The notes under the pieces: model-generated
What the model saw: the letters and a program-made list of their open reading frames with translations, nothing else
Told to the model about the DNA's origin: nothing
Database searches by the model: none
Part shown: one piece after another, positions 6,267-32,028 of the stretch
Numbering within the stretch: position 1 is the first letter of the stretch
Layout: every line of letters starts with the position of its first letter
Assembly: GCA_020440865.1 (NCBI GenBank)
Contig: JAGRNF010000008.1
Location: 1-35,340, forward strand
From: Leptospiraceae bacterium
GTDB taxonomy: Bacteria > Spirochaetota > Leptospiria > Leptospirales > Leptospiraceae
DNA: 35,340 nt
Direction: 5' to 3'
Made by a program: the position numbers and the translations under genes

Positions 6267-7424
6267 ATGAAGCCTCGGCTACTCTCAGAAAAAGTCTTAC
6301 AGGTCTATCGTAAATACCCTATTCTTACGATTACCGGCCCCAGACAATCCGGGAAAACTACTCTAAGTAGGATGTTGTTTCCGCAGAAAAAATATGTCAC
6401 TTTAGAAAATCCGGACAATAGAGAATTTGCTCAAGTTGATCCCTTGGGCTTTCTCAAGGAATATGAAAATGGAGCTATCATTGATGAAATCCAACGCTGC
6501 CCTGACCTAGCTTCCTATCTTCAAGGAGAAGTGGATAAAAATAATTCTCCGGGACGTTTCATTCTAACCGGAAGTGGGCAGTTTGAATTGATGCAAAGTG
6601 TTAGCCAGTCGCTTGCGGGAAGAACTGCAATTTTGAGACTACTTCCATTTTCCCTTGAAGAAACCGATTCATTCGTTGAGAGACGGGATAGTAACGAAGT
6701 ATTGTTCACAGGATTTTATCCCAGAATATTCGACCAAAATCTGGACCCTCAGGATTATTATTCATTTTATATAGACACCTACTTACAAAGAGATGTGAGG
6801 ATGATTTTAAATATTCAGGATCTGTCCCGTTTTGAAATTTTCTTAAAACTTTGTGCCGGAAGAACCGGACAAATCTTAAATTACAATGAACTTGGAACTG
6901 CTTCAGGGGTTAGTCACAATACGATTAAATCATGGATCAATGTTCTTGAGGCTAGTTTTATAATCAAACTTATCAGACCGTATTATAAAAATTTAAATTT
7001 ACGTCTTATAAAATCTCCAAAACTATTTTTCTTGGACACCGGACTTGTTTGTTCATTATTAGGAATAAAAAACAGCGAACATATTAAAAATCATCCATTA
7101 AAAGGTGCCATCTTTGAAACATTTATCGTTTCAGAGATTATAAAAAATAGATTCAATAAAGGATTGAAAGAAGATCTTTATTTTCTAAGAGATAGTAAAG
7201 GACATGAAATAGATTTAGTCTTTGACAGCGGTATGACATGCGATTTGTGTGAGATTAAGTCTTCTATGACAATCAATAAAGATTTTTTTAAAAACATTCA
7301 ATATTTTTCTAAAATGGAATTACCCATAAAAAATAAGTATATTATTTATGGAGGAGAGGAAAAAAGAAATCAATTGAAAGTAGAGATCTTACCCTGGGAT
7401 AGGATAAGAGAGATAGAATACTAA
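6267..7424 (+). CDS. AAA+ superfamily ATPase (COG1373-type, DUF4143-containing)
   Basis: Walker A 'ITGPRQSGKTTL'; overall architecture and 385-aa length typical of COG1373 ATPases. Confidence 0.8.
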   Translation: MKPRLLSEKVLQVYRKYPILTITGPRQSGKTTLSRMLFPQKKYVTLENPDNREFAQVDPLGFLKEYENGAIIDEIQRCPDLASYLQGEVDKNNSPGRFILTGSGQFELMQSVSQSLAGRTAILRLLPFSLEETDSFVERRDSNEVLFTGFYPRIFDQNLDPQDYYSFYIDTYLQRDVRMILNIQDLSRFEIFLKLCAGRTGQILNYNELGTASGVSHNTIKSWINVLEASFIIKLIRPYYKNLNLRLIKSPKLFFLDTGLVCSLLGIKNSEHIKNHPLKGAIFETFIVSEIIKNRFNKGLKEDLYFLRDSKGHEIDLVFDSGMTCDLCEIKSSMTINKDFFKNIQYFSKMELPIKNKYIIYGGEEKRNQLKVEILPWDRIREIEY

Positions 7425-7426
7425 AA

Positions 7427-7527
7427 CTATAGTCAATTTAAAAAGAATTAACGTATTCACAAAAGAATCATCAATAAAATGGCTACATACAGTAGTAAGA
7501 AAAACGCAATTACTTATGAAAATCAGT
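7427..7527 (+). repeat. Interspersed ~100-bp element, family 1, copy A1
   Basis: 'ctatagtcaatttaaaaagaattaacgtattcacaaaagaatcatcaataaaATGgctacatacagtagtaagaaaaacgcaattacttatgaaaatcag'; a 31-codon ORF (7479-7574) starts inside it. Confidence 0.7.
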
Positions 7528-7591
7528 ATTTATTTTATGAGTTTGAATTACCTGATCTATTGGAGATAAGATAATTCAAACTCAAACGGAA

Positions 7592-9256
7592 TCAGACTAC
7601 GGTAGCGATGTCCAAATTTGTTAGCATCTCTGTAGAGAGGGGTAAGATATATACCTTTTCAAATTTATTAAATCCTTTGGCATGAAAATGCGAAAAGTAA
7701 AATTTGAATTTGTATCCACCCAATTCGTATTCATCAAAACCATACAACCTGGAAGTCTCTTCATTCAATTGTTTGATTTCTTTCAAAAGAAAATACTCTC
7801 TCAATAAATCATAGAATTCCTGGTTGAAGCGGATATCAAACCTTGTCTCTTCTAATTTTTCCAGATTGGATGTGATATTTTGATACAAAACATAATCCTG
7901 TATTACTCTTTTAGTTTCCGGGTTAAAATTATTGAGAGATTTTAGTACTGAAGAAACTTCACTTATTTCATGAAATCTACTAATCGCTGTTTTGAAATAT
8001 TCCTGATTGTTTAGTTTCAAATCATTTATGGAAAAATGCTCTAACCTTGCGGCGAAATTTACGGTCTCTCCCGTTACGGTGAAGTCTCTGACAAGCTCAT
8101 TTCCCAAATTGGATCTCAGGATTTCCTTTCCATAACTCACCCCACTCCTCAATCCCAATTCAGAATTCAAGAGGTTTGCATCCTTCAAGAGATCCAATAG
8201 AACCTGATTCAACTGAAATATTGCCCGAAAATTATTGATCACAGTTTCTCTGTCTGACTTTTCCCTATCTGAGGAAGATTCAGATTTTAGAAAAGAACAC
8301 ATGACGTTATCTCCCATAAACTTATCTATACGACCATTGAACTTTTGGGAGACTAATTTTGTTCGCTTGAAAAAGGGTTGCTGAATTTCATTTCTGAATA
8401 CATTTTTTCCATATTTATTCAAAAATACTGTGCTATTTCTCAAATCAGAAAAACTAATCGATCCATGCTCATAAGTATCCGAAACACCAAATTGCAATAC
8501 ATCAGTAAACTTCTTCCAACTTTTGTTGTAATCTTCTTCCGAGCTATCCTCAGATTTTTTACTGGAATGACTGAGACATCTATCTTTGTACTCGTCAGTC
8601 AAATTCTTGAATAGAGTCTTGAATTCCGAATTGGCATCCTTACCGTTCAATACGATGAAATCATCTTTTCCTGAACTATATCTTTTTAATAAGACTGAAT
8701 CCGAGTAATTTAAATCGGGAAATAGAATATTCTCATGTTCTTCGGGAAGTCTCTTTCCGATAAAAACTATTTCATCCGGGAAGAATGTGGCCACAGAAGA
8801 ATCAAGAGCATAGAACCAGAGCAAGCTGGTAGGATAATTTGCATCATAGAAATAATTGCGTATCCAACCTAAATAATCATTGATTTGATTGGATTCATTG
8901 ATCGGAATAAAAAGACAGGTAAGATCATCGAGGGGATCAGAATAAAAATATATTTTAGTCAAATAATCCAATAATTGAAGTGGAGGATTTTCTTCATATT
9001 TCAAAGACAATTGATCGGAAGAAATATTTTTCATAAATCTCCACATGCAAACGCCTTCTTCTTTTTCTACATAAAGTTTATGCACATAACGATAAAGATG
9101 ATAATTCAAATTTGAATAATAATTATTTGCATTGATATAGATTTGTTTGGGAAGTTTCTGAAAGCATTGAGATATTTTTTCTTCGATTAAATTCTGATCT
9201 GATAAAGTAGCCAACTCTGTCAGCAATTCATCCAATGACTTTAATTGTTCCTGCAT
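7592..9256 (-). CDS. Soluble class III nucleotidyl (adenylate/guanylate) cyclase-domain protein with uncharacterised N- and C-terminal regions
   Basis: Central cyclase motifs 'GRIDKFMGDNVMCSF' and 'LGLRSGVSYGKEILRSNLGNELVRDFTVTGETVNFAARLE'; ~260 aa N-terminal and ~130 aa C-terminal without recognisable motifs. Confidence 0.7.
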   Translation of the reverse strand: MQEQLKSLDELLTELATLSDQNLIEEKISQCFQKLPKQIYINANNYYSNLNYHLYRYVHKLYVEKEEGVCMWRFMKNISSDQLSLKYEENPPLQLLDYLTKIYFYSDPLDDLTCLFIPINESNQINDYLGWIRNYFYDANYPTSLLWFYALDSSVATFFPDEIVFIGKRLPEEHENILFPDLNYSDSVLLKRYSSGKDDFIVLNGKDANSEFKTLFKNLTDEYKDRCLSHSSKKSEDSSEEDYNKSWKKFTDVLQFGVSDTYEHGSISFSDLRNSTVFLNKYGKNVFRNEIQQPFFKRTKLVSQKFNGRIDKFMGDNVMCSFLKSESSSDREKSDRETVINNFRAIFQLNQVLLDLLKDANLLNSELGLRSGVSYGKEILRSNLGNELVRDFTVTGETVNFAARLEHFSINDLKLNNQEYFKTAISRFHEISEVSSVLKSLNNFNPETKRVIQDYVLYQNITSNLEKLEETRFDIRFNQEFYDLLREYFLLKEIKQLNEETSRLYGFDEYELGGYKFKFYFSHFHAKGFNKFEKVYILPLSTEMLTNLDIATVV

Positions 9257-10267: not shown

Positions 10268-11815
10268 CTAAAACTTATACTCTCCACTCAGGAAGGCTTC
10301 CCGGGCGAATGATCCACCCATGAAGTCCCTGAGTGCACGGTATCCATCCGAAGGGAAGAAAATTCCTGATCGAAAGTTTAACTTAAAATCACTGTACACA
10401 CTCCAGGTCAGATTGAAATTGTATTCATCCCCGAAATATGTAGATGAGTTTTGTAAAAATAATGAATTGAACTCTCTATTCACTCCCAGTCTGGGTGCCT
10501 TGGAAGCATGAAGTTGATAGTAACCGAACGTTAGCTGAACCGGTCCGACTACATAATTAGTAAATCCTCCATACTCGATCAAACCTGTCATATTTGAAGC
10601 TGAAAATAATGCATACCCACCGGTAAAATCAACCAGCAAATTAGAGATCGCATAAAGAGGGGCAAGAGGACGATACCCCTGACCTTTCAAATTCGCTGAT
10701 GTCCCATCCGAATCTGTTCCGGGTCTTCCGGTAGTTCCAATTCCAATTAAGTTAAAATTGATAGAATTGTCATAAAAATAGGTTAGCTGAATATCCCCGA
10801 GAGCACCACCGATTTTGTAATCATTATTTCTTTGTATTACAGTAGATTGCGAACTGTTTACTAAAGAATTTGAAGTATGGACAACTCCATGATTGTAAAT
10901 TCCATGAACAATGATATTGAAATCCTTGAGTGTTAACTCATTGAACATACCATGCCAGTAGAGTTGTCCTGTTTCATTATTCGCATCTGTTGCATCATTG
11001 TCTTTGGATACATAGGTATAGATTTCAGTTTTAAAATTATTGATCTGAGAGTATTTGATCTTACCAAAAAACACATTAGAATTTTGACCGTACTTGTCAT
11101 TGTAACCATTTCCATCCAAATCAGCAATGGATCTTTCTCTGGCACGTATCCATCCCCACTCAAATGAAATTTTATCATCTTTAAAATCTTTATTCATATA
11201 GATACCGGGTGCTCTCGTGAATAAAACACGTCCCTGGGGTGAGGAGAACAACTGCAATCCATATCTGGAAAAGAAATCATATTGTCTCAAACGAAAATTT
11301 AAATAGAGAAGATTGGTTTGCATATTGATTGGAGATGTCTGAAACATCTCTCCGCCACTTCCAGCACCGTTGTCATAAGAACTTACCAGATCAGCATTCG
11401 AACCCGAGGTACTGAGAGCTCTACCTCCAAAAGGAATGTCTCCTATTTGAACACCGACAACTCCATCAAAATACTTAGAACTTATGAATTCTAAGTTCAT
11501 AAGTATCCTTGTATCCATGTAATTCAAATGTTCATTTTTGGGAGATCTTGTTGGCTTTTTGCCTTGCATCGCCAGTTCGAGATCTGAATAAATTTTTTCG
11601 TTTGCCTCGACAGTTCTGGCTTTGTACTCAGCGGGAATGTCGTACACGAAATTTGAATTATTGCTTCTGGACACAGGAATATCACGGGCCAAATCAAAAG
11701 CCCTAAGTCTCATGCTACCTGTTAGATTAAATTTTGTACCTTCCGAGCCTGAATCCTGAGAAACAACCGAAAATACAGGAATAAGAAGAAGAATGATTAG
11801 TTTTATTTTACCCAC
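10268..11815 (-). CDS. Outer-membrane beta-barrel protein (porin-like), family not recognised
   Basis: Signal peptide 'MGKIKLIILLLIPVFSVVSQ'; aromatic/Gly-rich alternating pattern; C-terminal '...GEYKF' ending in Phe as in OMP barrels. Start overlaps the upstream gene by 13 nt. Confidence 0.55.
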   Translation of the reverse strand: MGKIKLIILLLIPVFSVVSQDSGSEGTKFNLTGSMRLRAFDLARDIPVSRSNNSNFVYDIPAEYKARTVEANEKIYSDLELAMQGKKPTRSPKNEHLNYMDTRILMNLEFISSKYFDGVVGVQIGDIPFGGRALSTSGSNADLVSSYDNGAGSGGEMFQTSPINMQTNLLYLNFRLRQYDFFSRYGLQLFSSPQGRVLFTRAPGIYMNKDFKDDKISFEWGWIRARERSIADLDGNGYNDKYGQNSNVFFGKIKYSQINNFKTEIYTYVSKDNDATDANNETGQLYWHGMFNELTLKDFNIIVHGIYNHGVVHTSNSLVNSSQSTVIQRNNDYKIGGALGDIQLTYFYDNSINFNLIGIGTTGRPGTDSDGTSANLKGQGYRPLAPLYAISNLLVDFTGGYALFSASNMTGLIEYGGFTNYVVGPVQLTFGYYQLHASKAPRLGVNREFNSLFLQNSSTYFGDEYNFNLTWSVYSDFKLNFRSGIFFPSDGYRALRDFMGGSFAREAFLSGEYKF

Positions 11816-12672: not shown

Positions 12673-14667
12673 TCATGGTATATCTATAACAAGGATTGTT
12701 ATATCATCGTCAAATTCTTTTGCAAAACCAATCCATTCTTTGACCCGATAAGCAATAAAATAGTTCAATCCCTCAGCATTCATCGAAGCGTTTGATTTGA
12801 CAGCGATTTCAAAATTATCATAATCAAACATCTCATGCTTCTCATTGAACGCTTCAATAACTCCATCGGTGTAGATAATTATCCTATCCCCACTAGCAAA
12901 TTTATATTGATGTTCTTTTAACTTTATATTTTCAAACCATCCTATGAATTGACCCTTACATTCCAAATAAATAACTTTGTCTTCATTCCTTTTGTGAACC
13001 ATAATAGCAGGATGTCCCGCACTGCAATAGGTTAAGATATTTGATCTAAGACTAAAATGCGCATACACTGCTGTGACAAATTTTTTACCAAGATTGCCCA
13101 AAAGAGATGTATTCATCTTTCTCAACGCTGCTTCCGGCCTATGATAATAAGAATGGGAAGCCTTGAATGCCACTTTCAACATGGAAGCAACAAGAGCTGC
13201 TGCAGGTCCATGCCCGGAAACGTCCGCCACAAAACATGTGAAGGATTGTGGATCCTTTACATAAAAATCATAATAGTCTCCACCGATTTGCTTCATGGGA
13301 AGATAGTAAGCGGCCAGATCACAACCTTTTAACTTTGGAACACCCTCAGGCAATAAAGAGAGTTGCATTTTTTCAGCAAGATTCAATTCTTTTTTTATGC
13401 CTGTTATTTCATTTGACATCTCATCTTTTTCGATTTGCAATCGATTCATTTTTGAGAGAATAGCCAGGGCGACAAAGAGCATTTGAAGTGAAGAGCCCAG
13501 TGCGGAGGAATATTCACTGTAGTAATAATTTTCTATAGGAATAATTGAAAAGATTTTCCCCAGAAGTAAAAATGACCATCCGAGTATGAAGTACTTCGCA
13601 GGCTGAAATCCTTTTCGGTAAACATAGAAAGAAGAAATGTAAAATCCCAAAATGTACAAAAATCCAACAGTCAAAGCTATATACATTATATTTTCATTGA
13701 TCAATGAAGGTAATGGCAAAAACAGGAAGATCACCAGAGACATGATTCCCAGGGTTCGATGCAGCTTAGTATGATAAAATTTTAAATTCAAAAAATCTCT
13801 GGCAAATAAGGTAGCGAAAAATAAGGACATTACAAAAGCAAAGTACCAAATACTCGTGTTGATTTCAGGATTTTCAGGATATACAAAGTAGGTAGTGAGC
13901 GAACTCTGAGAAAGTTGATAGATTCCATCGAAGAACATCACACCGAAATAGTAGAGATAAGAATAATCCCTTAGATAATAAAAAATCGAGAAACTAAAAA
14001 TAGACATGAATATAATGATTCCATAAAATATTCCTGTCAGCACATAGTTTTTTAAAAAATAATCCAACAAACTGGAGATGCTAAAAATCTCTATCTGGGT
14101 GAACGCAATCAAATCTGATTGAATATCCAAATATATCTTTATAGATTCATTTGGAGATAAATGCACAGGAAATAGGGAATCGATCATATGGATCGGTTTG
14201 TATTTCAAAGGTAAACTACTCCCACCCTGAAATCTCTCCATATTTTCATTTTCATGTACTACATAACAAATAATTTTATCGAGAGCAAATTCTTTTATGG
14301 AAATAAATATAGGTACTTCGGTAGATCCTGAGTTCTTGAGTGAAAACCTGGTCCATAAATGTGTACCCCCACCAGGATAGACATATGCAACAGGTGACCT
14401 GGAAATTTCCCAATTCTTTTCATCTGAATGTATGACTTTTAATAAATCCTGCTCATTGACTAGATTGTAATTATTTTCAAGAAACGGTAAGATATTTAGA
14501 GTCTCATTTTTCAAATCAGAAACCTCTACAGGTTCAGAAAAAAGGGAAAATGAAAACACAAGTAGACTGATTAAGTATAGTTTCACAGTACATATACTTA
14601 GACTACCTGATCTGAATTTTCTTATAAAATTTGAGAACACATTGAAATCAGGATTTTTTATTATCAA
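12673..14667 (-). CDS. 7TM-receptor-type (7TMR-DISM-like) sensor fused to PP2C/SpoIIE serine phosphatase
   Basis: ~250-aa extracytoplasmic domain, 7 hydrophobic TM segments, coiled-coil linker, PP2C motifs 'QIGGDYYDF', 'ADVSGHGPAAALVASM', 'CSAGHPAIMV', 'IIIYTDGVIEA'. An alternative GTG start at 14589 would give a cleaner signal peptide 'MKLYLISLLVFSFSLFS'. Confidence 0.85.
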   Translation of the reverse strand: MIIKNPDFNVFSNFIRKFRSGSLSICTVKLYLISLLVFSFSLFSEPVEVSDLKNETLNILPFLENNYNLVNEQDLLKVIHSDEKNWEISRSPVAYVYPGGGTHLWTRFSLKNSGSTEVPIFISIKEFALDKIICYVVHENENMERFQGGSSLPLKYKPIHMIDSLFPVHLSPNESIKIYLDIQSDLIAFTQIEIFSISSLLDYFLKNYVLTGIFYGIIIFMSIFSFSIFYYLRDYSYLYYFGVMFFDGIYQLSQSSLTTYFVYPENPEINTSIWYFAFVMSLFFATLFARDFLNLKFYHTKLHRTLGIMSLVIFLFLPLPSLINENIMYIALTVGFLYILGFYISSFYVYRKGFQPAKYFILGWSFLLLGKIFSIIPIENYYYSEYSSALGSSLQMLFVALAILSKMNRLQIEKDEMSNEITGIKKELNLAEKMQLSLLPEGVPKLKGCDLAAYYLPMKQIGGDYYDFYVKDPQSFTCFVADVSGHGPAAALVASMLKVAFKASHSYYHRPEAALRKMNTSLLGNLGKKFVTAVYAHFSLRSNILTYCSAGHPAIMVHKRNEDKVIYLECKGQFIGWFENIKLKEHQYKFASGDRIIIYTDGVIEAFNEKHEMFDYDNFEIAVKSNASMNAEGLNYFIAYRVKEWIGFAKEFDDDITILVIDIP

Positions 14668-14780
14668 AAAGATTCAAGAATCTTTTCTTAAAGTTTTCGA
14701 ATTGCAATTGAACAAAAATTCCTAAAACTTAGTACAGAAAAAATGATCGATCCCTAAAAGTATTTTTCAAAGTTTACATA

Positions 14781-14880
14781 CCAATTCTCAGAAATAATTG
14801 CGTTTTATAGTTCACGGTATGTATCCATCGTAGAGCTGATTTTTTTTGTATCTGCAAATACTTTTGAAAATGACTATAAA
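14781..14880 (-). repeat. Interspersed ~100-bp element, family 1, copy B1 (inverse orientation; mini-ORF disrupted by an in-frame stop)
   Basis: Reverse complement aligns at ~75-80% with copies at 7427, 24798 and 26948: 'tttatagtcattttcaaaag...cgatggatacataccgtgaactataaaacgcaattatttctgagaattgg'. Confidence 0.7.
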
Positions 14881-15011
14881 TATAACTATTCTTACTAATA
14901 AAATAACTCACATTATGCAAATTTAAGAAAAAAGGGTCAAGCAGAAGCAATAGGTAAAATGGGCTGGTACTTTGACTTATTTTTTTACCTTTTTTTTAGT
15001 AAAAATAAATA

Positions 15012-15104
15012 CCAATTCACAGAAATAATTACTTTTTTTCTATTACTAGGTATGTAGCCATATTCTCTATGAATGAGTAAATGCTTTAGAAAATGACTAT
15101 AAAA
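15012..15104 (-). repeat. Interspersed ~100-bp element, family 1, copy B2 (inverse orientation; mini-ORF frameshifted)
   Basis: Reverse complement 'ttatagtcattttctaaagcatttactcattcatagagaatatggctacatacctagtaatagaaaaaaagtaattatttctgtgaattgg' aligns to the family consensus. Confidence 0.7.
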
Positions 15105-15178
15105 TCTGAGAAAATGGATCTATGGGAAACACAGAGGACAAAAGGGTTTATTAATTCATCTTAGTAATTTTTTATTTT

Positions 15179-15330
15179 TCTGAATTTTTTTAATTCAAAA
15201 TCATATTTTACTAATAAATCAAAATAAACAGGGATTGGGGACGATGATTCCTCTATTCTCCGAAAGGATCCCTTTCATCATTCTCAACTTTCCTATCAAG
15301 TGCTTACGTTGATTTATTAAAAAAATTTAT
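15179..15330 (+). repeat. ~150-bp element, family 2, copy 1 (direct repeat immediately 3' of the NeuB gene)
   Basis: 'tctgaatttttttaattcaaaatcatattttactaataaatcaaaataaacagggattggggacgatgattcc...' is near-identical over the first ~75 nt to the copy at 16385 and diverged in the 3' half; ends in a weak hairpin 'atcaa-gtgcttacg-ttgat' plus A/T run. Confidence 0.65.
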
Positions 15331-16351: not shown

Positions 16352-16384
16352 AAATTTTTAACTCACGTTACGCAATTTTTATTC

Positions 16385-16535
16385 TTCTGAACATTTTTTT
16401 ATAAAAAATCATATTTTACTAATAGATTAATAAATATAGGGGTTGGGGAGGATGAGTCCCCAATTAGCCGATAGGCTTCCTTTATTTATCCTCACCCTTA
16501 GCATGAAGAGCGTAAGGTGAGTTTTTTAATTATTT
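16385..16535 (+). repeat. ~150-bp element, family 2, copy 2 (direct repeat immediately 5' of the NeuB gene)
   Basis: 'tctgaacatttttttataaaaaatcatattttactaatagattaataaatataggggttggggaggatgagtcccc...' ends in a good stem-loop plus T6. Confidence 0.65.
16490..16527 (+). terminator. Rho-independent terminator-like hairpin inside family-2 copy 2
   Basis: Stem 'ctcaccctta' / 'taaggtgag' with 12-nt loop 'gcatgaagagcg', followed by 'tttttt'. It is oriented for the + strand although the flanking genes are on the - strand, 9 bp from the stop of the alpha/beta hydrolase gene. Confidence 0.45.
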
Positions 16536-23375: not shown

Positions 23376-24788
23376 TTAATCGACATCAACGATCAGAAGA
23401 GTGATGTCATCTTCAGGATGTTTGTTTCCGGTAAATTCTGAGACTTTTTGAATGATAAATCCTGTGGCTTCCTCACCACTCAATTCTCCGGATTCATGGA
23501 AATATCCAAAGAGAGTTTCTTCGTCAATCATCATCCTCGATTCATTGTTTCTCGCTTCCAGAAGACCATCCGTGTAAAAAATGAATCTATCTCCGGAAAA
23601 ATACGGAACAGTTTTCTCCTCGAGTTTTAAATCCGGAAATACTCCCAGGAGCCTTCCTTTGGATTCTAAAATATCTCGCTTACCATTTTTCCTAATTACA
23701 TAGGGAGGAGGATGGCCTGCTGAAGAGAAAATAAAACGTCCAACAGCAGAACTTTCCAGGGAAGCAGGAGATTGCTCAAACACACCTATAAATATTGTAA
23801 TAAAATTTCCTGCAGTTATATCTAGAAGTTGTTGGTTGATTTTATTGAGAATCAAAGAGGGATAGTAAAGTCTTTCTATGGAGTTTTTCCAGCTCATTTT
23901 TGCCATCGATGCTATAAAAGCGGCGGGTATCCCATGCCCGGAAACATCAGCGATGATAACTCCAATCTTGTCCCGAGAATTTTTTTTAAAACTTTGTGCC
24001 CGGAAGTCTACAATATCATAAAAATCTCCCCCAACACTGGTCATCGGGAGATATTTTGTGTAAAATTTCAAACCTGATTGAATCGGCAAGGCTTTGGGCA
24101 ATAAATTTTCCTGAATTTTTTTTGCCCTTTCGAGTTCTAAATTTACTTCTTTTTGTCTGTTTAGAATTTCTTCTTTAAGTTTTTTTTCCTGTTTGAGATT
24201 CTCAGTTAAATAGTTAATAAATAATTCATTAATATAATTAATAATATAAGAAGACTGCCTTTCGATTAATATTCTTGCTTTTTCTTTTTGAAACTTTCCC
24301 ATCGAGCTCATTTCTATAGATTGAATGAATTGGTCCCGAACATGACCTTCCTGAAGGTTGAACCGCCCCAAATCATCCGGAGACTGAACCAACCTTTTAA
24401 AAACTATATTTACTCTGTTTTTTATCAATTTGAAATCAGGATCTAAATCATATAAAAATAAATGCTCTATCCGGAATTTGTAAGTTAAAATTAAATTTTT
24501 AGCTGTAACATCTTCAAAATCAAAATCATTTACATTCTCTTTATAAATTCTTTCAAAAAAAGAATCTCCTTTAGGTAAGGTTTTATAAAAATTTTTAATA
24601 TATTTTAACTCGTTTTCTAAAAAATCTTTATAAGTGTTTCCTTCAGCCATAAGAAAGTTTAAAGTCTGATCTTTTTTTTTGAGTTCCCTTTGTATTACTT
24701 TTGCATACTCCCCTAATAATATTTTAAATAATTTTTTTCTAAAAAAATCTTTTTCTAATTTGTATCTACTAAATATTGACTCACTCAA
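23376..24788 (-). CDS. Cytoplasmic PP2C/SpoIIE-family serine phosphatase with N-terminal uncharacterised coiled-coil domain
   Basis: 'MTSVGGDFYDIVDF', 'IADVSGHGIPAAFIASM', 'SSAGHPPPYVIR', 'FIFYTDGLLEA'. The ORF as given starts with TTG. Confidence 0.8.
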   Translation of the reverse strand: MSESIFSRYKLEKDFFRKKLFKILLGEYAKVIQRELKKKDQTLNFLMAEGNTYKDFLENELKYIKNFYKTLPKGDSFFERIYKENVNDFDFEDVTAKNLILTYKFRIEHLFLYDLDPDFKLIKNRVNIVFKRLVQSPDDLGRFNLQEGHVRDQFIQSIEMSSMGKFQKEKARILIERQSSYIINYINELFINYLTENLKQEKKLKEEILNRQKEVNLELERAKKIQENLLPKALPIQSGLKFYTKYLPMTSVGGDFYDIVDFRAQSFKKNSRDKIGVIIADVSGHGIPAAFIASMAKMSWKNSIERLYYPSLILNKINQQLLDITAGNFITIFIGVFEQSPASLESSAVGRFIFSSAGHPPPYVIRKNGKRDILESKGRLLGVFPDLKLEEKTVPYFSGDRFIFYTDGLLEARNNESRMMIDEETLFGYFHESGELSGEEATGFIIQKVSEFTGNKHPEDDITLLIVDVD

Positions 24789-24797
24789 AACATTCTC

Positions 24798-24896
24798 CTA
24801 TAGTCATTTTCAAAAGGTTTGCATATGCACAAAAGAATCATCTATAAAATGGCTACATACCGTAATAGAAAAAATGCAATTATTTATGAGAAATGG
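24798..24896 (+). repeat. Interspersed ~100-bp element, family 1, copy A2 (reference copy)
   Basis: 'ctatagtcattttcaaaaggtttgcatatgcacaaaagaatcatctataaaATGgctacataccgtaatagaaaaaatgcaattatttatgagaaatgg'; begins 10 bp from the start codon of the PP2C gene on the opposite strand. Confidence 0.7.
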
Positions 24897-24925
24897 TGTA
24901 TAGAAATGCTTTATAAGATCATTAA

Positions 24926-26935
24926 TCATTTCTCCCTACCCTTAAATTCTAGAAGTAGAAAGGTCGCATCATCGTTTAAATTTGAATTCTCTTTTGATTC
25001 TTTCCATACTTTTACAATTTTATCCAGGGAAGTATCCACCTGATAAATTTGATTATTGGTAAATACCTGAAAGAAGGCATCCATATTCCATCCGGGGTTA
25101 GTATTGTCCAAGAAAACTCCATCTGTATAAAGTAAAATCCTATCTCCGGGGTTTAATTTATCTACCCTATATTCAAATTTGGGATACTGGATTGAACTCA
25201 TACCCAAAAACATTCCTTTGGATAGCAAACTTTCATAAATCCCAAATTTTTTTCTAAATAAAAAGGCTGGCTTATGTGCTGCTGAAGAGTACAATAAAGT
25301 CCCATCGGAATGAATTATCAATAAAAATGCTGTCATATAATCATTTGTATGAATAGTCTTTTTGGTCTGCTCATTGACATTTTGAAATATTTCATTGGGT
25401 TTTGAATCTGACTTTATAAAATTTTGAAAACTCATTTTGAAAAGAGTGGTTAGCAATGCCGCAGATACACCGTGACCGGATACGTCACCAATATAAACCG
25501 CTATTGTATCTTTATCTATACTAATAATATCAAAGAAATCCCCACCTATATCCATTAGGTATTCACAATGATACTTTACACTTATGAATTCATATTCGTT
25601 TTTTTCGGAGGGAATCAATCCTCTTTGCACATCAGAAGCAAGTTGAAGTTCATCCTGAATTTTTTTCTGTTTATCTGCAAAATCTTTTATAATTTTTTTT
25701 AATTTAATATTTTCTTCTTCTGATACTTTTTTTAATTCATTTTTTTCTTCTCGAAGTATTTTTGATGTCAAACCTATTTTAGATGAAAAAATCAAGGTTA
25801 TAGATATCGCCTGAATCACAACAGAAGCTTCAAATCCCCACTTAACATATCCGATATGAGAGTCATGGAAATAATTACGAAATAAGAAAAGAACACTTCC
25901 CAATATTAGAGGACTCCAGGTAATTGCATACATATACAATTGATTGTCTTTCTTTACTATCATATATAAAAAAAACAAACAGAGTGTACTAAATATCACT
26001 CCATCAATAAACAATAAATAATAGAAATCGAGAATATTTTGAGAATGATATCCAAAACTCATTATAAAAATGAGAAAAATTAAGATAAAATTTCGAATTT
26101 TTTTGATGGTGTAGTATTCAACTTTATAAGATTGTAATTCTGAAAATATATAAAGAACGCAGAGCTGTAATAGATTAATCACAATGAGATACAGCACCTG
26201 ATACATACCTAAAGTGAAGTCAAAGAATAAAATAATCAGATTATGAGTAAATAGTTCATAAAAAGCTAATGTAGAGATAAGGAAGAAATTATATAAAAAA
26301 TTCATTTCTTTTGAGAAGAAAAAAATGAATACATTATAAATTCCAAATAAAATCAATAATCCGTAATATATTCCCAAAAGAAAGTTTTCAATAAATTTCT
26401 TATCGTGAAATCTCTTTGTATTGTATATGTTAAAAGAATTGAATATGGGTGCTCTGGAATAAATTTTGATATATATTTCAAGTTCTTCATGATCTTCGAT
26501 GAAGGGTAATTCAATAATAAAATTTCTATTTCGAACTTGTCCCGGTTTCCATTCTTGCCCCTTGCCCATATCTATAAGTTTCAATCTTTCTTTTCTTAAT
26601 AAAAAAACATCTACTCTTTCGAGAATACTATCATCTAGTTCTAAATACATAGCTTCATCTATTTTACCAAATATTCTAATATGAAACCAATGATGATTCG
26701 TAGATGTCATCGAATTGTAAGTTTCCTTATTTATCACCCGGAACAAATGGCTTGAATTCCTTACTTCATCCAAACTAAGAATTTTATTTTCTTCTTGATA
26801 GTATTCAAAAAAAGGTGTGATGTTTTGTTGTGAACTCAGCAATTCAATCGAATAGGATTCAACCGAATAAAGAGGAAAAGTACAAATCAAGAAAAATGTT
26901 AAAATCAATTTTTGAATTAATATCCAATTCTTCAT
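24926..26935 (-). CDS. 7TM-receptor-type (7TMR-DISM-like) sensor fused to PP2C/SpoIIE serine phosphatase
   Basis: Extracytoplasmic N-terminal domain, 7 TM segments, coiled coil, PP2C motifs 'MDIGGDFFDII', 'IGDVSGHGVSAALLT', 'SSAAHKPAFLF', 'ILLYTDGVF'. The ORF is open to 27028, but that extension is built from the family-1 repeat; the Met at 26935 ('MKNWILIQKLILTFFLICTFPLYS') gives a signal peptide and lies just outside the repeat. Confidence 0.8.
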   Translation of the reverse strand: MKNWILIQKLILTFFLICTFPLYSVESYSIELLSSQQNITPFFEYYQEENKILSLDEVRNSSHLFRVINKETYNSMTSTNHHWFHIRIFGKIDEAMYLELDDSILERVDVFLLRKERLKLIDMGKGQEWKPGQVRNRNFIIELPFIEDHEELEIYIKIYSRAPIFNSFNIYNTKRFHDKKFIENFLLGIYYGLLILFGIYNVFIFFFSKEMNFLYNFFLISTLAFYELFTHNLIILFFDFTLGMYQVLYLIVINLLQLCVLYIFSELQSYKVEYYTIKKIRNFILIFLIFIMSFGYHSQNILDFYYLLFIDGVIFSTLCLFFLYMIVKKDNQLYMYAITWSPLILGSVLFLFRNYFHDSHIGYVKWGFEASVVIQAISITLIFSSKIGLTSKILREEKNELKKVSEEENIKLKKIIKDFADKQKKIQDELQLASDVQRGLIPSEKNEYEFISVKYHCEYLMDIGGDFFDIISIDKDTIAVYIGDVSGHGVSAALLTTLFKMSFQNFIKSDSKPNEIFQNVNEQTKKTIHTNDYMTAFLLIIHSDGTLLYSSAAHKPAFLFRKKFGIYESLLSKGMFLGMSSIQYPKFEYRVDKLNPGDRILLYTDGVFLDNTNPGWNMDAFFQVFTNNQIYQVDTSLDKIVKVWKESKENSNLNDDATFLLLEFKGREK

Positions 26936-26947
26936 AGCATTGATTTT

Positions 26948-27045
26948 TATAATCATTTTCAAAAAGATTTGTGTACTCACTAGTAAATCAGCAATAAAAT
27001 GGCTAATATCGTAAACAGAAAAACGCATTTATTTTTGAAAATTAG
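26948..27045 (+). repeat. Interspersed ~100-bp element, family 1, copy A3
   Basis: 'ttataatcattttcaaaaagatttgtgtactcactagtaaatcagcaataaaATGgctaatatcgtaaacagaaaaacgcatttatttttgaaaat'; TATAAT in place of TATAGT. Confidence 0.65.
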
Positions 27046-27061
27046 TTCATTCTTCTCATCC

Positions 27062-27185
27062 AAACATTCTCAGAATTGGTTTTTATAAATACTTGCGAAT
27101 TTCATCTTAAGGTATATAACCATTTTATAGCTTATTCTTCTGTGAAAGCGCAAACCTTCTGAAAGTGACTTTAGTAACTATAGCT
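27062..27185 (-). repeat. Interspersed element, family 1, copy B3 (inverse orientation, adjacent to A3 forming an inverted pair)
   Basis: Reverse complement 'ctatagttactaaagtcac...cacagaagaataagctataaaatggttatataccttaag...cgcaagtatttataaaaaccaattctgagaatg' aligns to the family, with small rearrangements at the 3' end. Confidence 0.6.
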
Positions 27186-27274: not shown

Positions 27275-27853
27275 TCAAAAAATTCCGGGTAAAAATCGTT
27301 TCTTATCAGCAAAATGCTCCTGATATTTATGGTTTTGAAATAATTTCGATTCTTCAAGCGGGATTCTAAATGCCAATAATATAGCATTTCCGACACTGAA
27401 AAAAATAAAAGTCAGATAAGCGTTATGTATTAATGAAATGCTCAAAATTTCCAAAATCACTACAAGATAATTTGGATGTCTAATGAATCTATAAACTCCT
27501 TTTGTCACTATGGAGTCTGGCGAGGTGTCTGTAATGATTTTTGTATTCCATGAAGTATTCAAAATCTTTAAAACATGAAACCTGAGTATCAGACAAAACA
27601 AATAGATCCCCCCAAAAATCATTCCGCCGTAATTAGAAAAATCTCTTTTGAATAAAATCACTTCCAACGGAACCGAAATTAAAAACATAGAGTGAAGAAG
27701 TACAAAAAAAACAAAGTATCTTTCTTTCGTTTCGTGTGTTTGAGGATTTTGGATCCTAAGATTTCGATTTTTTTTTGCTATCAAAAGTTCCAACAATCGC
27801 AAAACAATCGTCAGAATCAAAACAATAGCCAGAAATATATAACCAAGATTCAT
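27275..27853 (-). CDS. Isoprenylcysteine carboxyl methyltransferase (ICMT/PEMT-like) family membrane methyltransferase
   Basis: Multi-TM; C-terminal motifs 'RFIRHPNYLVVILEILSISL' and 'EESKLFQNHKYQEHF' (R-H-P-x-Y ... E-E-x-x-L-x-x-x-F-G/H). Start codon overlaps the stop of the upstream gene (TAATG). Confidence 0.7.
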   Translation of the reverse strand: MNLGYIFLAIVLILTIVLRLLELLIAKKNRNLRIQNPQTHETKERYFVFFVLLHSMFLISVPLEVILFKRDFSNYGGMIFGGIYLFCLILRFHVLKILNTSWNTKIITDTSPDSIVTKGVYRFIRHPNYLVVILEILSISLIHNAYLTFIFFSVGNAILLAFRIPLEESKLFQNHKYQEHFADKKRFLPGIF

Positions 27854-28578
27854 TAGTAAATACTAATACTACACTCACCGCTGCCGGTGACAATTACAAA
27901 TTGCATTGTATATCCTCCCTGAAGACTCCATTGAGGATTCACAGCATTCTCAGCAGCGGTTGGAGAGCATGTATTGGAAAAGTAAACATAATTCATATAA
28001 TTTGGACAAATAAAGGTAAAGCTCCTAGTTCCGGGAAGCAATTCTACCTTGAAAGCCTTTCCTGTGGTTTTGCTGTAAGTGACCTTGTTCACCTTTCCAA
28101 CTTCAAGAGTTACTTCTTCCCCATAGGGACTCCCTATTCCTGCGTAGCAATCCACATAATAATTCTTACCCGAACAGTTGTAGCCCGATTTTTGATCCAA
28201 GCTGGAACAGGTTCCCCCGGGCTTCATCACCTTCATTATGCCCTGAGGGATTCCATCCGGAACCTTTACTATCAATTCAGTATTTGTCGAGGCTTGTACA
28301 GTAGCAGGTAGATTATTGAAAGTAACAATATTCTCTGAAGTGACATAAGAAAAATTTCTACCTTTGATAGTTACTATTGAGGAAGGATAAGTAACATTGG
28401 AGTAGGAAATGCTTGGATTCACCTTTACAGGATCAAAAGACGTGACCACAGGTGAAGCAGTAGAATCACCGACAAGAGCTGCAAGGTAGTCATTACCGGA
28501 AGATGACGATTTACAATCCCCGATTAGGAATACAGCAATCAGTATTAATATTTGATATTTAATAAAATCCATGATCAT
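27853..28578 (-). CDS. Secreted/lipoprotein-like protein with IPT/TIG (Ig-like) domain and Cys-rich C-terminal domain
   Basis: Signal peptide with Cys ('...AVFLIGDCKSS'); TIG-like segment 'VVTSFDPVKVNPSISYSNVTYPSSIVTIKGRNFSYVTSENIVTFNNLPATVQASTNTELIVKVPDG'; 8 Cys in the C-terminal 110 aa. Confidence 0.6.
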   Translation of the reverse strand: MIMDFIKYQILILIAVFLIGDCKSSSSGNDYLAALVGDSTASPVVTSFDPVKVNPSISYSNVTYPSSIVTIKGRNFSYVTSENIVTFNNLPATVQASTNTELIVKVPDGIPQGIMKVMKPGGTCSSLDQKSGYNCSGKNYYVDCYAGIGSPYGEEVTLEVGKVNKVTYSKTTGKAFKVELLPGTRSFTFICPNYMNYVYFSNTCSPTAAENAVNPQWSLQGGYTMQFVIVTGSGECSISIY

Positions 28579-28821
28579 ATCAATCTGACTACCGACACTA
28601 AGTAATGTTTAAAAATCGGAAACAAAAATTCAATTCAATTCGAAATTCTTTTGAAAAATACTATACAGATAGCGATAATAAGCAGAGAAAATATATGGAT
28701 TTTATGAAAATTACCACAATTTTTTAATTTTTTAATAAGAAACTGCTTGTTTCATTTTTTTTGGTATTCAATTGTTATTCAATAATATAATTAGTAACCC
28801 TGTTCCATAAAGGAAGTATCA

Positions 28822-31800
28822 ATGGATTTTATTGATCTAATTACATCATACACTCTTTTCAATTTTTACTCTTTTGGTACACTCTTAGTCTCATTTTTTA
28901 CTTTTTTCTTTGCTTTCTTCTTCTTAAACCTTTCCAATAAATCTAAAAGTACATTTCATCTGGGAATGGGATTTTTCTTTCTTGCCCTCTTCAGCTTTGG
29001 TTATTTCTTCGGAGCATCCTTTTATCATCCCCTAGCTGCTTATCACAGATGGCTGACAGGAGGCTTTGTCTTACCGGCACTGATTCATTTCGGACAATTC
29101 TTCTTCACCTATCCCACTGACATCAATCCCAAACTATCCCGTCGAGTTTTTCAGGGATCCTGGGCCATTGCCATTTTGGCTATCCTCACTTTCTTTTATC
29201 AGACAGCTATTTCAGAAAAGAAATACCATTTCACAGGACACTATTGGGATTTTGATGCTGAAGGAATTAGCTTTGTTCTGGGAATCATCATCATGCTTTT
29301 TTCTCTGGTCAAGCTCTTGGTGATAGGTCTATGGAAAGCTTATAGGGTGAAAACAAATGAGCGATACGTCATCCTGCTCATGGTGATAGCTATGTTTATT
29401 TCAGCACTCCTCCCCAACTTCACAAATATTCTGAGTAGGGATGGTGCTCTTGAAAGGTCTACGTATCTATTTTCACTAGTATTTAGTTTTGTTCTCGGTT
29501 TTTTCATGGTTTCGATTGTGTACATCAATTCGACTACAGATCGAACCAGCTTCATGGCAAAAATTATAAGTATCACACTTGTAACCATGCTTCTCATCAT
29601 GCAATCACTTAGTTTTTATACCATGAAAGATCAGGATTCTGATTTCGATGGGATCAAAGTCGAGCATATTGAAAGGATATTGATCAATAAAGATTACTTT
29701 CGGGACATAGATTACATTCTAGAAATTCCACTTGATTCTAAGGAAATCAATAAAATCAGATACTCTGATGTTCACAATCTGGATTTAGAACTACTTAAAA
29801 TCGATTTTCTAAATACATCGATTCATGATAGAATTCAACGCCTAACTTCAACAAATTTCAAAAAAAATCTCATTGAAATTCTTGATACAACCCACCCGTA
29901 CTTTCAGGGTTACAGAGAATCGATTGATTTATTTCTTCAAAACAATGAATCCCTTAGTGATTCAGAACTCAAAGACAGATTGTCTGACTATTTATCCGAC
30001 TTAAACTCAATCGGTTATGTTACTACCAACCGAATCAGTGCACTGAACAATACAAACTTTTGTTCGGAAGTTACCAAATTCCTATCCTCAAAATTAGAAT
30101 TAAAACCCTTTAAAAATGAAATTGAGAGACATTTCAAAGATTGTGAATGGGACAATAAACCTATGACTTCTGATGAGATGCGTAGAGAAATCAACAAATA
30201 TTTTCGTTTTTTCAAACCTTCTCTTACAAGACACTACCGTAAAAGCATGCATGAATATCAGGATCAGCAACACTATGTGTCATACATCTACTACAATCCA
30301 TATTTAGAAATAGTTACCGAAGTTGGTTTTTCTTATATCGAATACAGAAATCACATCCACAAAGTCGCCTACAGTCAACAATTGACACTCATCATAGTGA
30401 TTCTTGTTATAGTGATATTCTATCCAATGTTCTTCAGAGGCTCTCTCCTGAATCCTCTGAACCTCCTTCTTCAGGGAGTGGAAAACGTCAATAATGGTGA
30501 ACTGGAAGTAGAAGTGCCCGTAATGGTAAAAGACGAGATCGGATTTTTGGCTGATTCCTTCAATAAAATGGTTATATCCATTCGATATGCAAGGTCAGAA
30601 CTACAACATTACGCTGAAACCCTAGAAGAAAAAGTTGCCAATAGAACCAAAGAAGTCGAAGAGCAAATGTCAGAAGTGCAAAACCTGAAAAATCAACAGG
30701 ATGGAGATTACTACCTGACTTCACTTCTAGCCAAGCCCTTATTTAAAAACTGGAACAAATCCGATTTTGTTTCTACAGATTTCTTTTTAAAACAAAAGAA
30801 AAGTTTTCAGTTTCGAACAAAAGAATCTGAACTCGGTGGAGACATCTGTGTAACAGGAAATCTTCGATTGGGAAAGAAAGAAAAGTTCAAACGATATACT
30901 TTTGCTCTCAATGGTGATGCGATGGGAAAGTCAATGCAGGGTGCCGGAGGATCTCTGGTCATGGGAGTTGTGATCAATTCGATCATTGCACGCTCAGCAA
31001 GAAATGATTGGGTCCTTGACCAAACCCCGGAACATTGGTTGACTGAGATGTACTATGAAGTCAATCGGGTCTTTAAATCTTTCAATGGATCTATGGTAAT
31101 ATCCTGTGTAGCTATGCTCATAGATGACGAGACAGGAGATACATTCTATTTCAATGCCGAGCATCCCTTCTCCGTCCTATATCGAAACGGAGATGCAGTT
31201 TTTATTGATAAAGATCTGACTCTCAGAAAGCTGGGTCTCGATTCAGAAATCCCCTTTGAGGTCCAAAAAACCAAACTTCTACCCGGTGACATTTTAATCA
31301 TAGGTTCTGATGGAAGAGATGATATCGATCTCACTCCGGAGGAACCCTTCCGCACGATCAATGAGGACGAAAACTTGTTTTTAAAGCATGTAGTCCGCGG
31401 GAAGGGAAATCTTGAAGAGATCTACAAATCTATTCTGAAAATGGGTTCAATCACCGATGATTTTTCACTTCTCAGAGTGGTTTATAGAGAACATGAAATT
31501 TCAAACAATGTAGATCTGGAAGATAGCTATGATGAAAACATCGAAATCGATTCTATTTACCAAAAGTGCAAAGAAATCCTGAAAGCCGGGAATTTTTCTG
31601 AGGCCTATGAACACCTCAACCGTGCTTATCAGATCAATCCGGACCATCCGAAGGTCAGTAGACTTTATGGAATGTTGGCCTTCAAATCCAAAGACTTTCA
31701 TACAGCAATCTCAGTCATGAGAGGATATCTCCTGAGGGATCCCCTTTATTCTGACTTCTGGTACTATTTGGGAATCTCAGAAAAAATGGTAGGAAATTAC

Positions 31801-32028
31801 CGTGGAGCTGAGGAGGCCTCACGACAATTGGTCCGAATGCAACCCGACCACATTCAGAATATGATCAATCTTACAGATATTCTTCGCCTACAAAACAAAT
31901 TGGATGAAGCCAGAGTCTTCCTGAAGCAGGTGATCAATATAGATCCTGAAAATCGGCAGGCCAAAAAAATGTTCAATATCTTAGAAAAAAACAATTCGAA
32001 TGAGGATATGGACTCAATAGCCGATTGA
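28822..32028 (+). CDS. Large multi-domain membrane sensor: N-terminal polytopic TM region, HAMP, PP2C/SpoIIE phosphatase, C-terminal TPR
   Basis: ~8 TM segments in the first 270 aa; HAMP-like 'LLQGVENVNNGELEVEVPVMVKDEIGFLADSFNKMV'; PP2C motifs 'LGGDICVTG', 'ALNGDAMGKSMQGAGGSLVMG', 'FNAEHPFSVLYRNGD', 'ILIIGSDGRDD'; TPR repeats at the C-terminus. Confidence 0.85.
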   Translation: MDFIDLITSYTLFNFYSFGTLLVSFFTFFFAFFFLNLSNKSKSTFHLGMGFFFLALFSFGYFFGASFYHPLAAYHRWLTGGFVLPALIHFGQFFFTYPTDINPKLSRRVFQGSWAIAILAILTFFYQTAISEKKYHFTGHYWDFDAEGISFVLGIIIMLFSLVKLLVIGLWKAYRVKTNERYVILLMVIAMFISALLPNFTNILSRDGALERSTYLFSLVFSFVLGFFMVSIVYINSTTDRTSFMAKIISITLVTMLLIMQSLSFYTMKDQDSDFDGIKVEHIERILINKDYFRDIDYILEIPLDSKEINKIRYSDVHNLDLELLKIDFLNTSIHDRIQRLTSTNFKKNLIEILDTTHPYFQGYRESIDLFLQNNESLSDSELKDRLSDYLSDLNSIGYVTTNRISALNNTNFCSEVTKFLSSKLELKPFKNEIERHFKDCEWDNKPMTSDEMRREINKYFRFFKPSLTRHYRKSMHEYQDQQHYVSYIYYNPYLEIVTEVGFSYIEYRNHIHKVAYSQQLTLIIVILVIVIFYPMFFRGSLLNPLNLLLQGVENVNNGELEVEVPVMVKDEIGFLADSFNKMVISIRYARSELQHYAETLEEKVANRTKEVEEQMSEVQNLKNQQDGDYYLTSLLAKPLFKNWNKSDFVSTDFFLKQKKSFQFRTKESELGGDICVTGNLRLGKKEKFKRYTFALNGDAMGKSMQGAGGSLVMGVVINSIIARSARNDWVLDQTPEHWLTEMYYEVNRVFKSFNGSMVISCVAMLIDDETGDTFYFNAEHPFSVLYRNGDAVFIDKDLTLRKLGLDSEIPFEVQKTKLLPGDILIIGSDGRDDIDLTPEEPFRTINEDENLFLKHVVRGKGNLEEIYKSILKMGSITDDFSLLRVVYREHEISNNVDLEDSYDENIEIDSIYQKCKEILKAGNFSEAYEHLNRAYQINPDHPKVSRLYGMLAFKSKDFHTAISVMRGYLLRDPLYSDFWYYLGISEKMVGNYRGAEEASRQLVRMQPDHIQNMINLTDILRLQNKLDEARVFLKQVINIDPENRQAKKMFNILEKNNSNEDMDSIAD

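Follow-up and report, generated by a model that had tools for sequence, protein, structure and literature searches.

Correia elements (CREE/NEMIS) of Neisseria insert at TA, and their ends read TATAGT..., after which the repeat continues GGATTAA.... RUP, a pneumococcal repeat of ~107 bp, probably owes its mobility at TA sites to a transposase of the IS630 type. The ends of Correia elements are -10-like boxes with demonstrated promoter activity, and their hairpin is cleaved by RNase III (PMC10969869). The pneumococcal repeats RUP, BOX and SPRITE are short and non-coding; they cluster and are found inserted in each other, and mutual insertion, like the presence of sigma-70-like boxes, is also described for other MITEs (PMC10969869). 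The defining traits of MITEs, among them a prokaryotic size of 50-800 bp, have been laid out together with a catalogue of conserved MITEs, in which the Leptospirales, whose genomes contain a median of 154 MITEs, mostly between genes, rank among the richest orders (PMC11602168).

The repeat described here, from a Leptospiraceae bacterium, fits this MITE-rich, intergenic picture. It resembles Correia elements, which are ~100-150 bp long with terminal inverted repeats of ~26 nt and lie mostly between genes in dozens to hundreds of copies. However, there is no sequence relationship past the TATAGT tip, which is followed here by CATTTTCAAAAG; compared with the 26-bp Correia terminal repeat, only the first six bases agree. 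The host phylum is also different, and tandem arrays are prominent in the Leptospiraceae element. Promoter activity, IHF binding and RNase III processing, which are features of Correia elements, would be putative in the Leptospiraceae element. With RUP, BOX and SPRITE it shares the habit of short non-coding repeats that are clustered and mutually inserted. These repeats have no sequence similarity to it, and the parent insertion sequence of RUP is known, whereas none was found here. Rickettsia palindromic elements and the ORF-carrying small mobile sequences of enterobacteria are likewise short and palindromic and often contain stop-free frames, but these are inserted in-frame inside genes, whereas 0 of 60 classifiable copies of the present element lie inside an ORF.

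Results and Discussion

Distribution of the repeat

The window, by which we mean the whole stretch of 35,340 nucleotides that was analysed (contig JAGRNF010000008.1), has a G+C content of ~35% and an ordinary chromosomal gene content: a TonB-dependent receptor, adenylate cyclase-like proteins, GcvP, NeuB, an MFS transporter and several SpoIIE/7TMR-DISM phosphatases. No transposase gene lies within the window, and a search for tRNA and tmRNA found none. The 18-mer TATAGTCATTTTCAAAAG, allowing up to three mismatches, occurs seven times in the window against 0.31 expected occurrences. Using nhmmer, we found six full copies of ~105 nt each (Table 1).

Table 1. Copies of the repeat and associated features in the window.
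Feature	Position	Strand	Description
Copy A1	7428-7532	+	nhmmer 81.8 bits; copy named in the initial annotation
MATY mini-ORF in A1	7479-7574	+	31 aa, MATYSSKKNAITYENQYLFYEFELPDLLEIR
Hairpin GAGUUUGAAUUA...UAAUUCAAACUC	7538-7584		Strand folding: z -4.98 (+), -5.97 (-)
Copy B1	14775-14878	-	nhmmer 87.7 bits; ORF ends after 7 codons
Copy B2	15006-15101	-	nhmmer 62.0 bits; internal 11-nt deletion, frame-shifting 2-nt insertion
Copy A2	24799-24902	+	nhmmer 93.1 bits; in 138-nt spacer between two SpoIIE phosphatase genes
Copy A3, TATAAT variant	26948-27051	+	nhmmer 77.6 bits
Copy A4, TAAAGT variant	27070-27173	-	nhmmer 80.8 bits; decayed 3' end
Solo 5' terminal-repeat match TATAGTATTTTTCAAAAG	28648-28665	-	2 mismatches; upstream of gene 27853-28578

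A DNA pattern scan linked the repeat to the Leptospiraceae MAG HK-STAS-SPIR-4. With a strict two-block pattern, essentially one genome among 185,579 species-representative genomes was matched, namely HK-STAS-SPIR-4; by nhmmer, none of the eight matches in other phyla contains the repeat element. The nhmmer total of 82 matches comprises the 6 window copies, 73 copies spread over 34 loci of HK-STAS-SPIR-4, and 3 re-samplings of A1 on contigs that are 99.7-100% identical to the window (L001-L003). Extra copies were found on metagenome contigs L046, L109, L158, L168, L199 and L211. When metagenomes were scanned with the 5' terminus, 120 loci were obtained, five of which contain true copies, all of them MITE-sized, and among viral contigs the 38 matches to the 18-mer include no real element. 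The repeat is a recurrent intergenic element in some Leptospiraceae bacteria, with at least 73 copies in HK-STAS-SPIR-4.

By exact look-up of its proteins, the window was located on metagenome contigs that stem from several samples. By sequence comparison, the window belongs to a genome different from that of HK-STAS-SPIR-4, since no fetched HK-STAS-SPIR-4 locus overlaps the window and the best matches of the window proteins to these loci are just 23-46% identical.

The window copies are old and diverged. Their similarity is 69-80% in repeat-finder comparisons that involve A1, A2 and A3, and 77-88% in the others. Terminal pairing has been lost in A1 and A2; it is kept in B1 and, less so, in A3 and A4. 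Every related contig that reaches A2, A3 and A4 carries these copies with identical spacing, although the contigs come from different samples. The copies are present, at the same spacing, on each of ten strain-level contigs around 27275-27853, and the 138-nt spacer with A2 is identical on the related contigs that reach it (L049, L050 and L052), in each of which nhmmer finds A2. Copies A2, A3 and A4 are old, fixed insertions.

Anatomy and arrangement

Alignment of 67 full copies with their flanks delimits an element of 103-105 nt between sharp boundaries. Column entropy is ~1.8-2 bits in the flanks, drops to ~0 exactly from TATAGTC, and goes up again after GGTATATA. The consensus is TATAGTCATTTTCAAAAGTATTTGCG, with ends that read TAGTCATTTTCAAAAG... 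and ...GAGAAYYGGTA. The termini form imperfect inverted repeats of ~27 nt (TATAGTCATTTTCAAAAG...GAGAATTGGTATATA), in which columns 1-27 and 81-107 make 24 pairs. In these pairs 80.1% of the cells are paired, compared with 37-53% in a control in which the partner was slid by 1-3 columns, and the inner pairs show compensatory GC-to-AU changes. Nearly all copies have TA or TATA at both ends. The central block AATAAAATGGCTACATACC is nearly invariant and is conserved as strongly as the termini.

The initial annotation placed a -10-like hexamer at the start of every copy, TATAGT in five and TATAAT in one. A hexamer does stand at each start, but homology gives a count of four TATAGT, one TATAAT and one TAAAGT. 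The homologous hexamer of A4 is TAAAGT (27173-27168), and the TATAGT at 27182-27177 lies 9 nt upstream of it in unrelated flanking sequence.

All 60 copies that could be classified, meaning those with a called ORF on both sides, are intergenic, and they fall into orientation classes of 17, 17, 16 and 10. Copies often abut. Head-to-tail arrays share TATA and have a period of 99-101 nt, as in the arrays on L041 (4.0 copies of 101 nt at 99% identity), L013 (4.0 copies of 99 nt) and L009 (three units), and a head-to-head pair sharing TATA occurs on L039. On L021 a full copy is nested within the central TATA of another copy. Removing 99 nt together with one TA from this locus restores a gap-free, collinear outer copy that scores 70.6 bits, as opposed to 64.5 bits with the TA kept. 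The resulting increment of 101 nt equals the tandem period and, read from the sequence, would be explained by a core of 99 nt plus a duplicated TA (2 bp) or by one of 97 nt plus a duplicated TATA (4 bp).

The central TATA, in the CTATAAAATGG block, is the site of the nested insertion (L021 5519-5724) and also the start of a half-copy (L004 7009-7067). It looks like a preferred break or insertion point.

Mobility

We conclude that the element is very probably a MITE, a non-autonomous DNA transposon with a core of ~99 nt and a duplicated TA (or 97 nt and TATA). At 103-105 nt it has no room for a transposase; its 24 terminal pairs compare with the at least 10-15 bp of terminal repeat typical of MITEs; the TA/TATA flanks and the restored outer copy on L021 correspond to a target duplication within the usual 2-10 bp; and its many copies are intergenic and in both orientations. 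In the mechanism that we propose, a transposase encoded elsewhere in the genome would bind both terminal repeats and insert the element at TA/TATA sites in AT-rich intergenic DNA, with duplication of the target. Because the ends and the centre of the element contain TATA, new copies would often land beside or inside old ones, which would account for the tandem, head-to-head and nested arrangements. For the four-copy arrays at 99% identity, unequal recombination is a possible alternative to repeated insertion. One subfamily appears to have been amplified recently in HK-STAS-SPIR-4.

From the terminal repeats and the TA/TATA duplication, together with general knowledge of the IS630/Tc1-mariner and IS5 families, we infer that the mobilising enzyme is a TA-targeting DDE transposase, for example an IS630/Tc1-mariner-like or IS5-like one. 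Searches of the window, of ~270 kb of HK-STAS-SPIR-4 loci and of the metagenome matches revealed neither a parent insertion sequence nor a transposase with matching termini. Across all loci searched, a screen for solo termini and for long elements bounded by both termini returned truncated copies only, and an all-against-all ORF comparison of the HK-STAS-SPIR-4 loci revealed no multi-copy protein. An empty orthologous site was not found either: the strain-level contigs all carry A2, A3 and A4, and the homologues of the neighbouring cyclase-like gene in this comparison are at most 71% identical and not syntenic.

Folding and strand asymmetry

Two features are predicted by no plain cut-and-paste MITE, namely the invariant centre and a bias of the hairpin towards the forward strand. 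The forward-strand hairpin is the more stable one in 51 of 67 copies (mean -18.5 vs -15.0 kcal/mol), and three conserved G-T wobble positions in the terminal pairing can pair on the forward strand only. Since the strand asymmetry of the fold derives from these three inherited positions, it is statistically weak evidence. It is conceivable, though unlikely, that these features mark a strand-specific hairpin element with AATAAAATGGCTACATACC at its apex. Such an element would either transpose in single-stranded form through an enzyme that has escaped recognition, or have been recruited as a portable -10 box or as a processing site of the RNase III type. If such co-option were true, the element would rewire the expression of the adjacent, expanded SpoIIE-phosphatase and cyclase signalling genes in this lineage.

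Decidedly unlikely is the related possibility of a mobile palindromic repeat that an HUH enzyme (IS200/IS605-type TnpA or RAYT) transposes as single-stranded DNA, so that the element would resemble PATE or REP/BIME rather than a MITE of a DDE transposase. The long hairpin of one strand would then be the substrate, in keeping with the forward-only wobbles and the more stable forward fold, and the 101-nt insertion on L021 fits equally well an insertion next to TA with no duplication. Apart from the weakness of the asymmetry, no HUH gene was seen near any copy, and the element differs from the known members of these groups: long terminal inverted repeats reaching the outermost bases are normally absent from IS200/IS605-type elements, and REPs are much shorter than an element of ~105 nt.

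Transcription

We consider it very unlikely that the repeat is a multi-copy small-RNA gene, in which TATAGT would serve as the -10 box of a transcript that folds into a long hairpin and acts in trans or is processed. A conserved -10-like hexamer at a fixed position would suit such a gene, as would the compensatory changes in the inner stem and the end-to-end folds of the young HK-STAS-SPIR-4 copies, which have significant forward-strand z-scores of -2.5 to -4.3. The window copies, however, fold no better than shuffled sequence (z-scores -0.3 to -0.9); the termini of A1 have decayed (z-score -0.65), and B1 retains end-to-end folding. Beyond the pairing of the termini we found no consensus RNA fold: RNAalifold on 65 copies predicted 0 pairs and no consensus structure. 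An Rfam gathering search of the whole window gave no match, and an Rfam E-value search around A1 gave chance miRNA matches only, in the flanking hairpin. The nested and abutting copies and the sharp, TA-flanked ends are features of a transposon.

TATAGT is a good -10 match, but upstream of the hexamer nothing is conserved. When TTGACA was matched at at least 4 of 6 positions with a spacing of 16-18 nt, a -35-like hexamer was found in 8 of 67 copies, against 7 of 67 in a control with the wrong spacing. Among the six window copies, A2 is the only one that scores as a full sigma-70-like site (TTGACT, 17-nt spacer), and its TTGACT comes from the flank, not from the element. Overall, promoter-like counts equal those of shuffled sequence, and a terminator-like site was found at none of the copies. 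As judged from these counts, TATAGT does not appear to be an intrinsic full promoter. Since the hexamer consists of the target TA and the tip of the terminal repeat, its conservation follows from transposition alone and calls for no promoter role. For the MITE that we propose, TATAGT would be the duplicated TA joined to the four opening bases of the terminal repeat (TAGT...), conserved for transposition, and would act as a -10 hexamer only where the flank supplies the remainder of a promoter. By analogy with Correia elements and other MITEs, promoter activity of the TATAGT end is possible in particular contexts. If this end is an active -10 box, the element would be a source of regulatory variation, as Correia elements are in Neisseria; any effect of the element on neighbouring genes is putative.

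The MATY reading frame

That the element encodes a small MATY protein family, or a leader peptide that regulates the downstream gene, is hardly credible, for all that the ATG is retained in 64 of 67 copies, that many copies read MATYxxRKNAIIYENWYI through to the element end, and that five of the six window copies adjoin SpoIIE phosphatase genes. The initial annotation had described the frame accurately. The ATG, reported ~45 nt past the hexamer, lies 51 nt after its first T (40 nt in B2, owing to the 11-nt deletion), and translation reproduces the listed ORFs of 31 aa (7479-7574), 64 aa, 29 aa and 17 aa. The reported disruption of the frame in B1 and B2 was equally borne out, with a stop after 7 aa in B1 (MDTYREL) and after 10 aa in B2, caused there by a 2-nt insertion.

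Length argues against a protein. The element has no internal stop codon in this frame, so that the C-terminus of the ORF is set by the flank; the peptides are 3-76 aa long, with a median of 20.5. In the ORF at 7479-7574, codons 1-18 lie within the repeat, which ends at 7532, and codons 19-31 in the flank. The commonest form is MATYRE followed by a stop (10 copies); an eleventh ORF of 6 aa reads MATYLE. This MATYRE-stop form, with its stop at codon 7, belongs to the youngest, most uniform and most recently amplified subfamily. In a subfamily on metagenome contigs the nucleotides are kept and the frame is shifted after MATY, giving MATYxxEKMQ..., and one divergent copy (L046) has ACG in place of ATG. 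The retained ATG itself lies inside the central block AATAAAATGGCTACATACC. No purine-rich ribosome-binding site is visible in the sequence before it, which reads AATCAGCTATAAAATGG.

A test for codon-level constraint across the copies, whose failure had been set beforehand as a refutation of coding, found none. The first, second and third codon positions have entropies of 0.714/0.779/0.633, the third thus being the least variable. In the MATY frame, synonymous changes make up a fraction of 0.164 of the single-base codon differences, less than in any of the other five frames. When the whole element is considered, the synonymous fraction is flat across the six frames (0.22-0.27). The two synonymous differences between A1 and A2 noted previously are real, but they account for only 2 of 9 differing codons, which is no excess.

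A small-protein gene family, one of three roles originally considered, is contradicted by the varying length, the unconstrained codons, the shifted frames, the missing Shine-Dalgarno sequence and the flank-set ends. Neither did the second, a leader peptide or attenuator, survive, since the copies show no orientation bias relative to their neighbours: for 34 of 60 copies the downstream gene runs in the same direction, and for 26 of 60 in the opposite one. Copy A1 lies between convergent genes, and there is no fixed, co-oriented upstream position. Of the third suggestion, a non-coding RNA with fortuitous ORFs, the fortuitous ORFs stand and the RNA gene does not, as the evidence favours a MITE. 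On these sequence comparisons, the MATY reading frame is accidental and not coding. We also eliminated a type I toxin-antitoxin system, because the peptide is not hydrophobic and its length is not conserved.

Open frames are common in the repeat as a whole. Three of the six frames of the majority consensus lack stop codons, and the mean number of open frames per copy is 1.07, compared with 0.30 in shuffled sequence; no frame has a synonymous excess, and no copy lies inside a gene.

Surroundings of the window copies

The five window copies that adjoin SpoIIE phosphatase genes do so in both orientations, which argues for independent insertions into AT-rich spacers and not for parts of a duplicated cassette. 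Segmental duplication together with the SpoIIE paralogues was ruled out, since the orientation to those genes differs among copies. The paralogous SpoIIE (PP2C-type) phosphatase genes form a cluster in the window (10268-11815, 12673-14667, 23376-24788, 24926-27028 and 28822-32028), and several of the encoded proteins have 7TMR-DISM or HAMP sensor domains. Two class III cyclase-like genes accompany the cluster, which makes this a dense stretch of signalling genes.

Copies A3 and A4 converge and are 18 nt apart. The 700-aa SpoIIE/7TMR-DISM gene, encoded on the strand opposite to A3, has its called start (27028) within this copy. The true start of this gene is likely the ATG at 26936 (- strand; MKNWILIQKLILTFF...), 12 nt outside A3. 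Copies thus already distort gene calls, in this case by a start codon placed inside the repeat, and in annotation they should be masked as repeats and not listed as small genes or sRNAs. Gene calls on related contigs likewise begin at the start codon of 27028. With its TA/TATA target, its 27-nt termini and its tandem and nested arrays, the element is a clean, well-bounded addition to the MITE-rich Leptospirales, with a possible use as a strain marker.

Copy A1 starts 3 nt past the stop of a DUF4143/AAA gene (6267-7424). The hairpin at 7538-7584 lies outside the repeat, yet encodes the C-terminal part of the ORF at 7479-7574. It has 13 stem pairs plus inner pairs and stands between the convergent genes 6267-7424 and 7592-9256; since it has no U-tail, it is not a canonical terminator.

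On a contig from another metagenome (L046), an element related to the solo match at 28648-28665, with the same start (TATAGTATTTTCAAAAA) and a strong internal hairpin, occupies 2087-2177, directly after the stop of a 71%-identical orthologue of gene 7592-9256. This is the same site as that of A1, with the opposite orientation to the gene and a different element family.

A second, unrelated repeat family of ~175 nt is present in the window at 15148-15320 and 16355-16529. These two copies are 74% alike, and each lies directly downstream of a gene. The family is multi-copy in HK-STAS-SPIR-4 (L023 545-1281, L033 4746-4806, L029 7629-7685 and L045 5076-5121), where it forms tandem arrays, and it often stands directly beside copies of the TATAGT repeat, so that the two families form joint repeat clusters.
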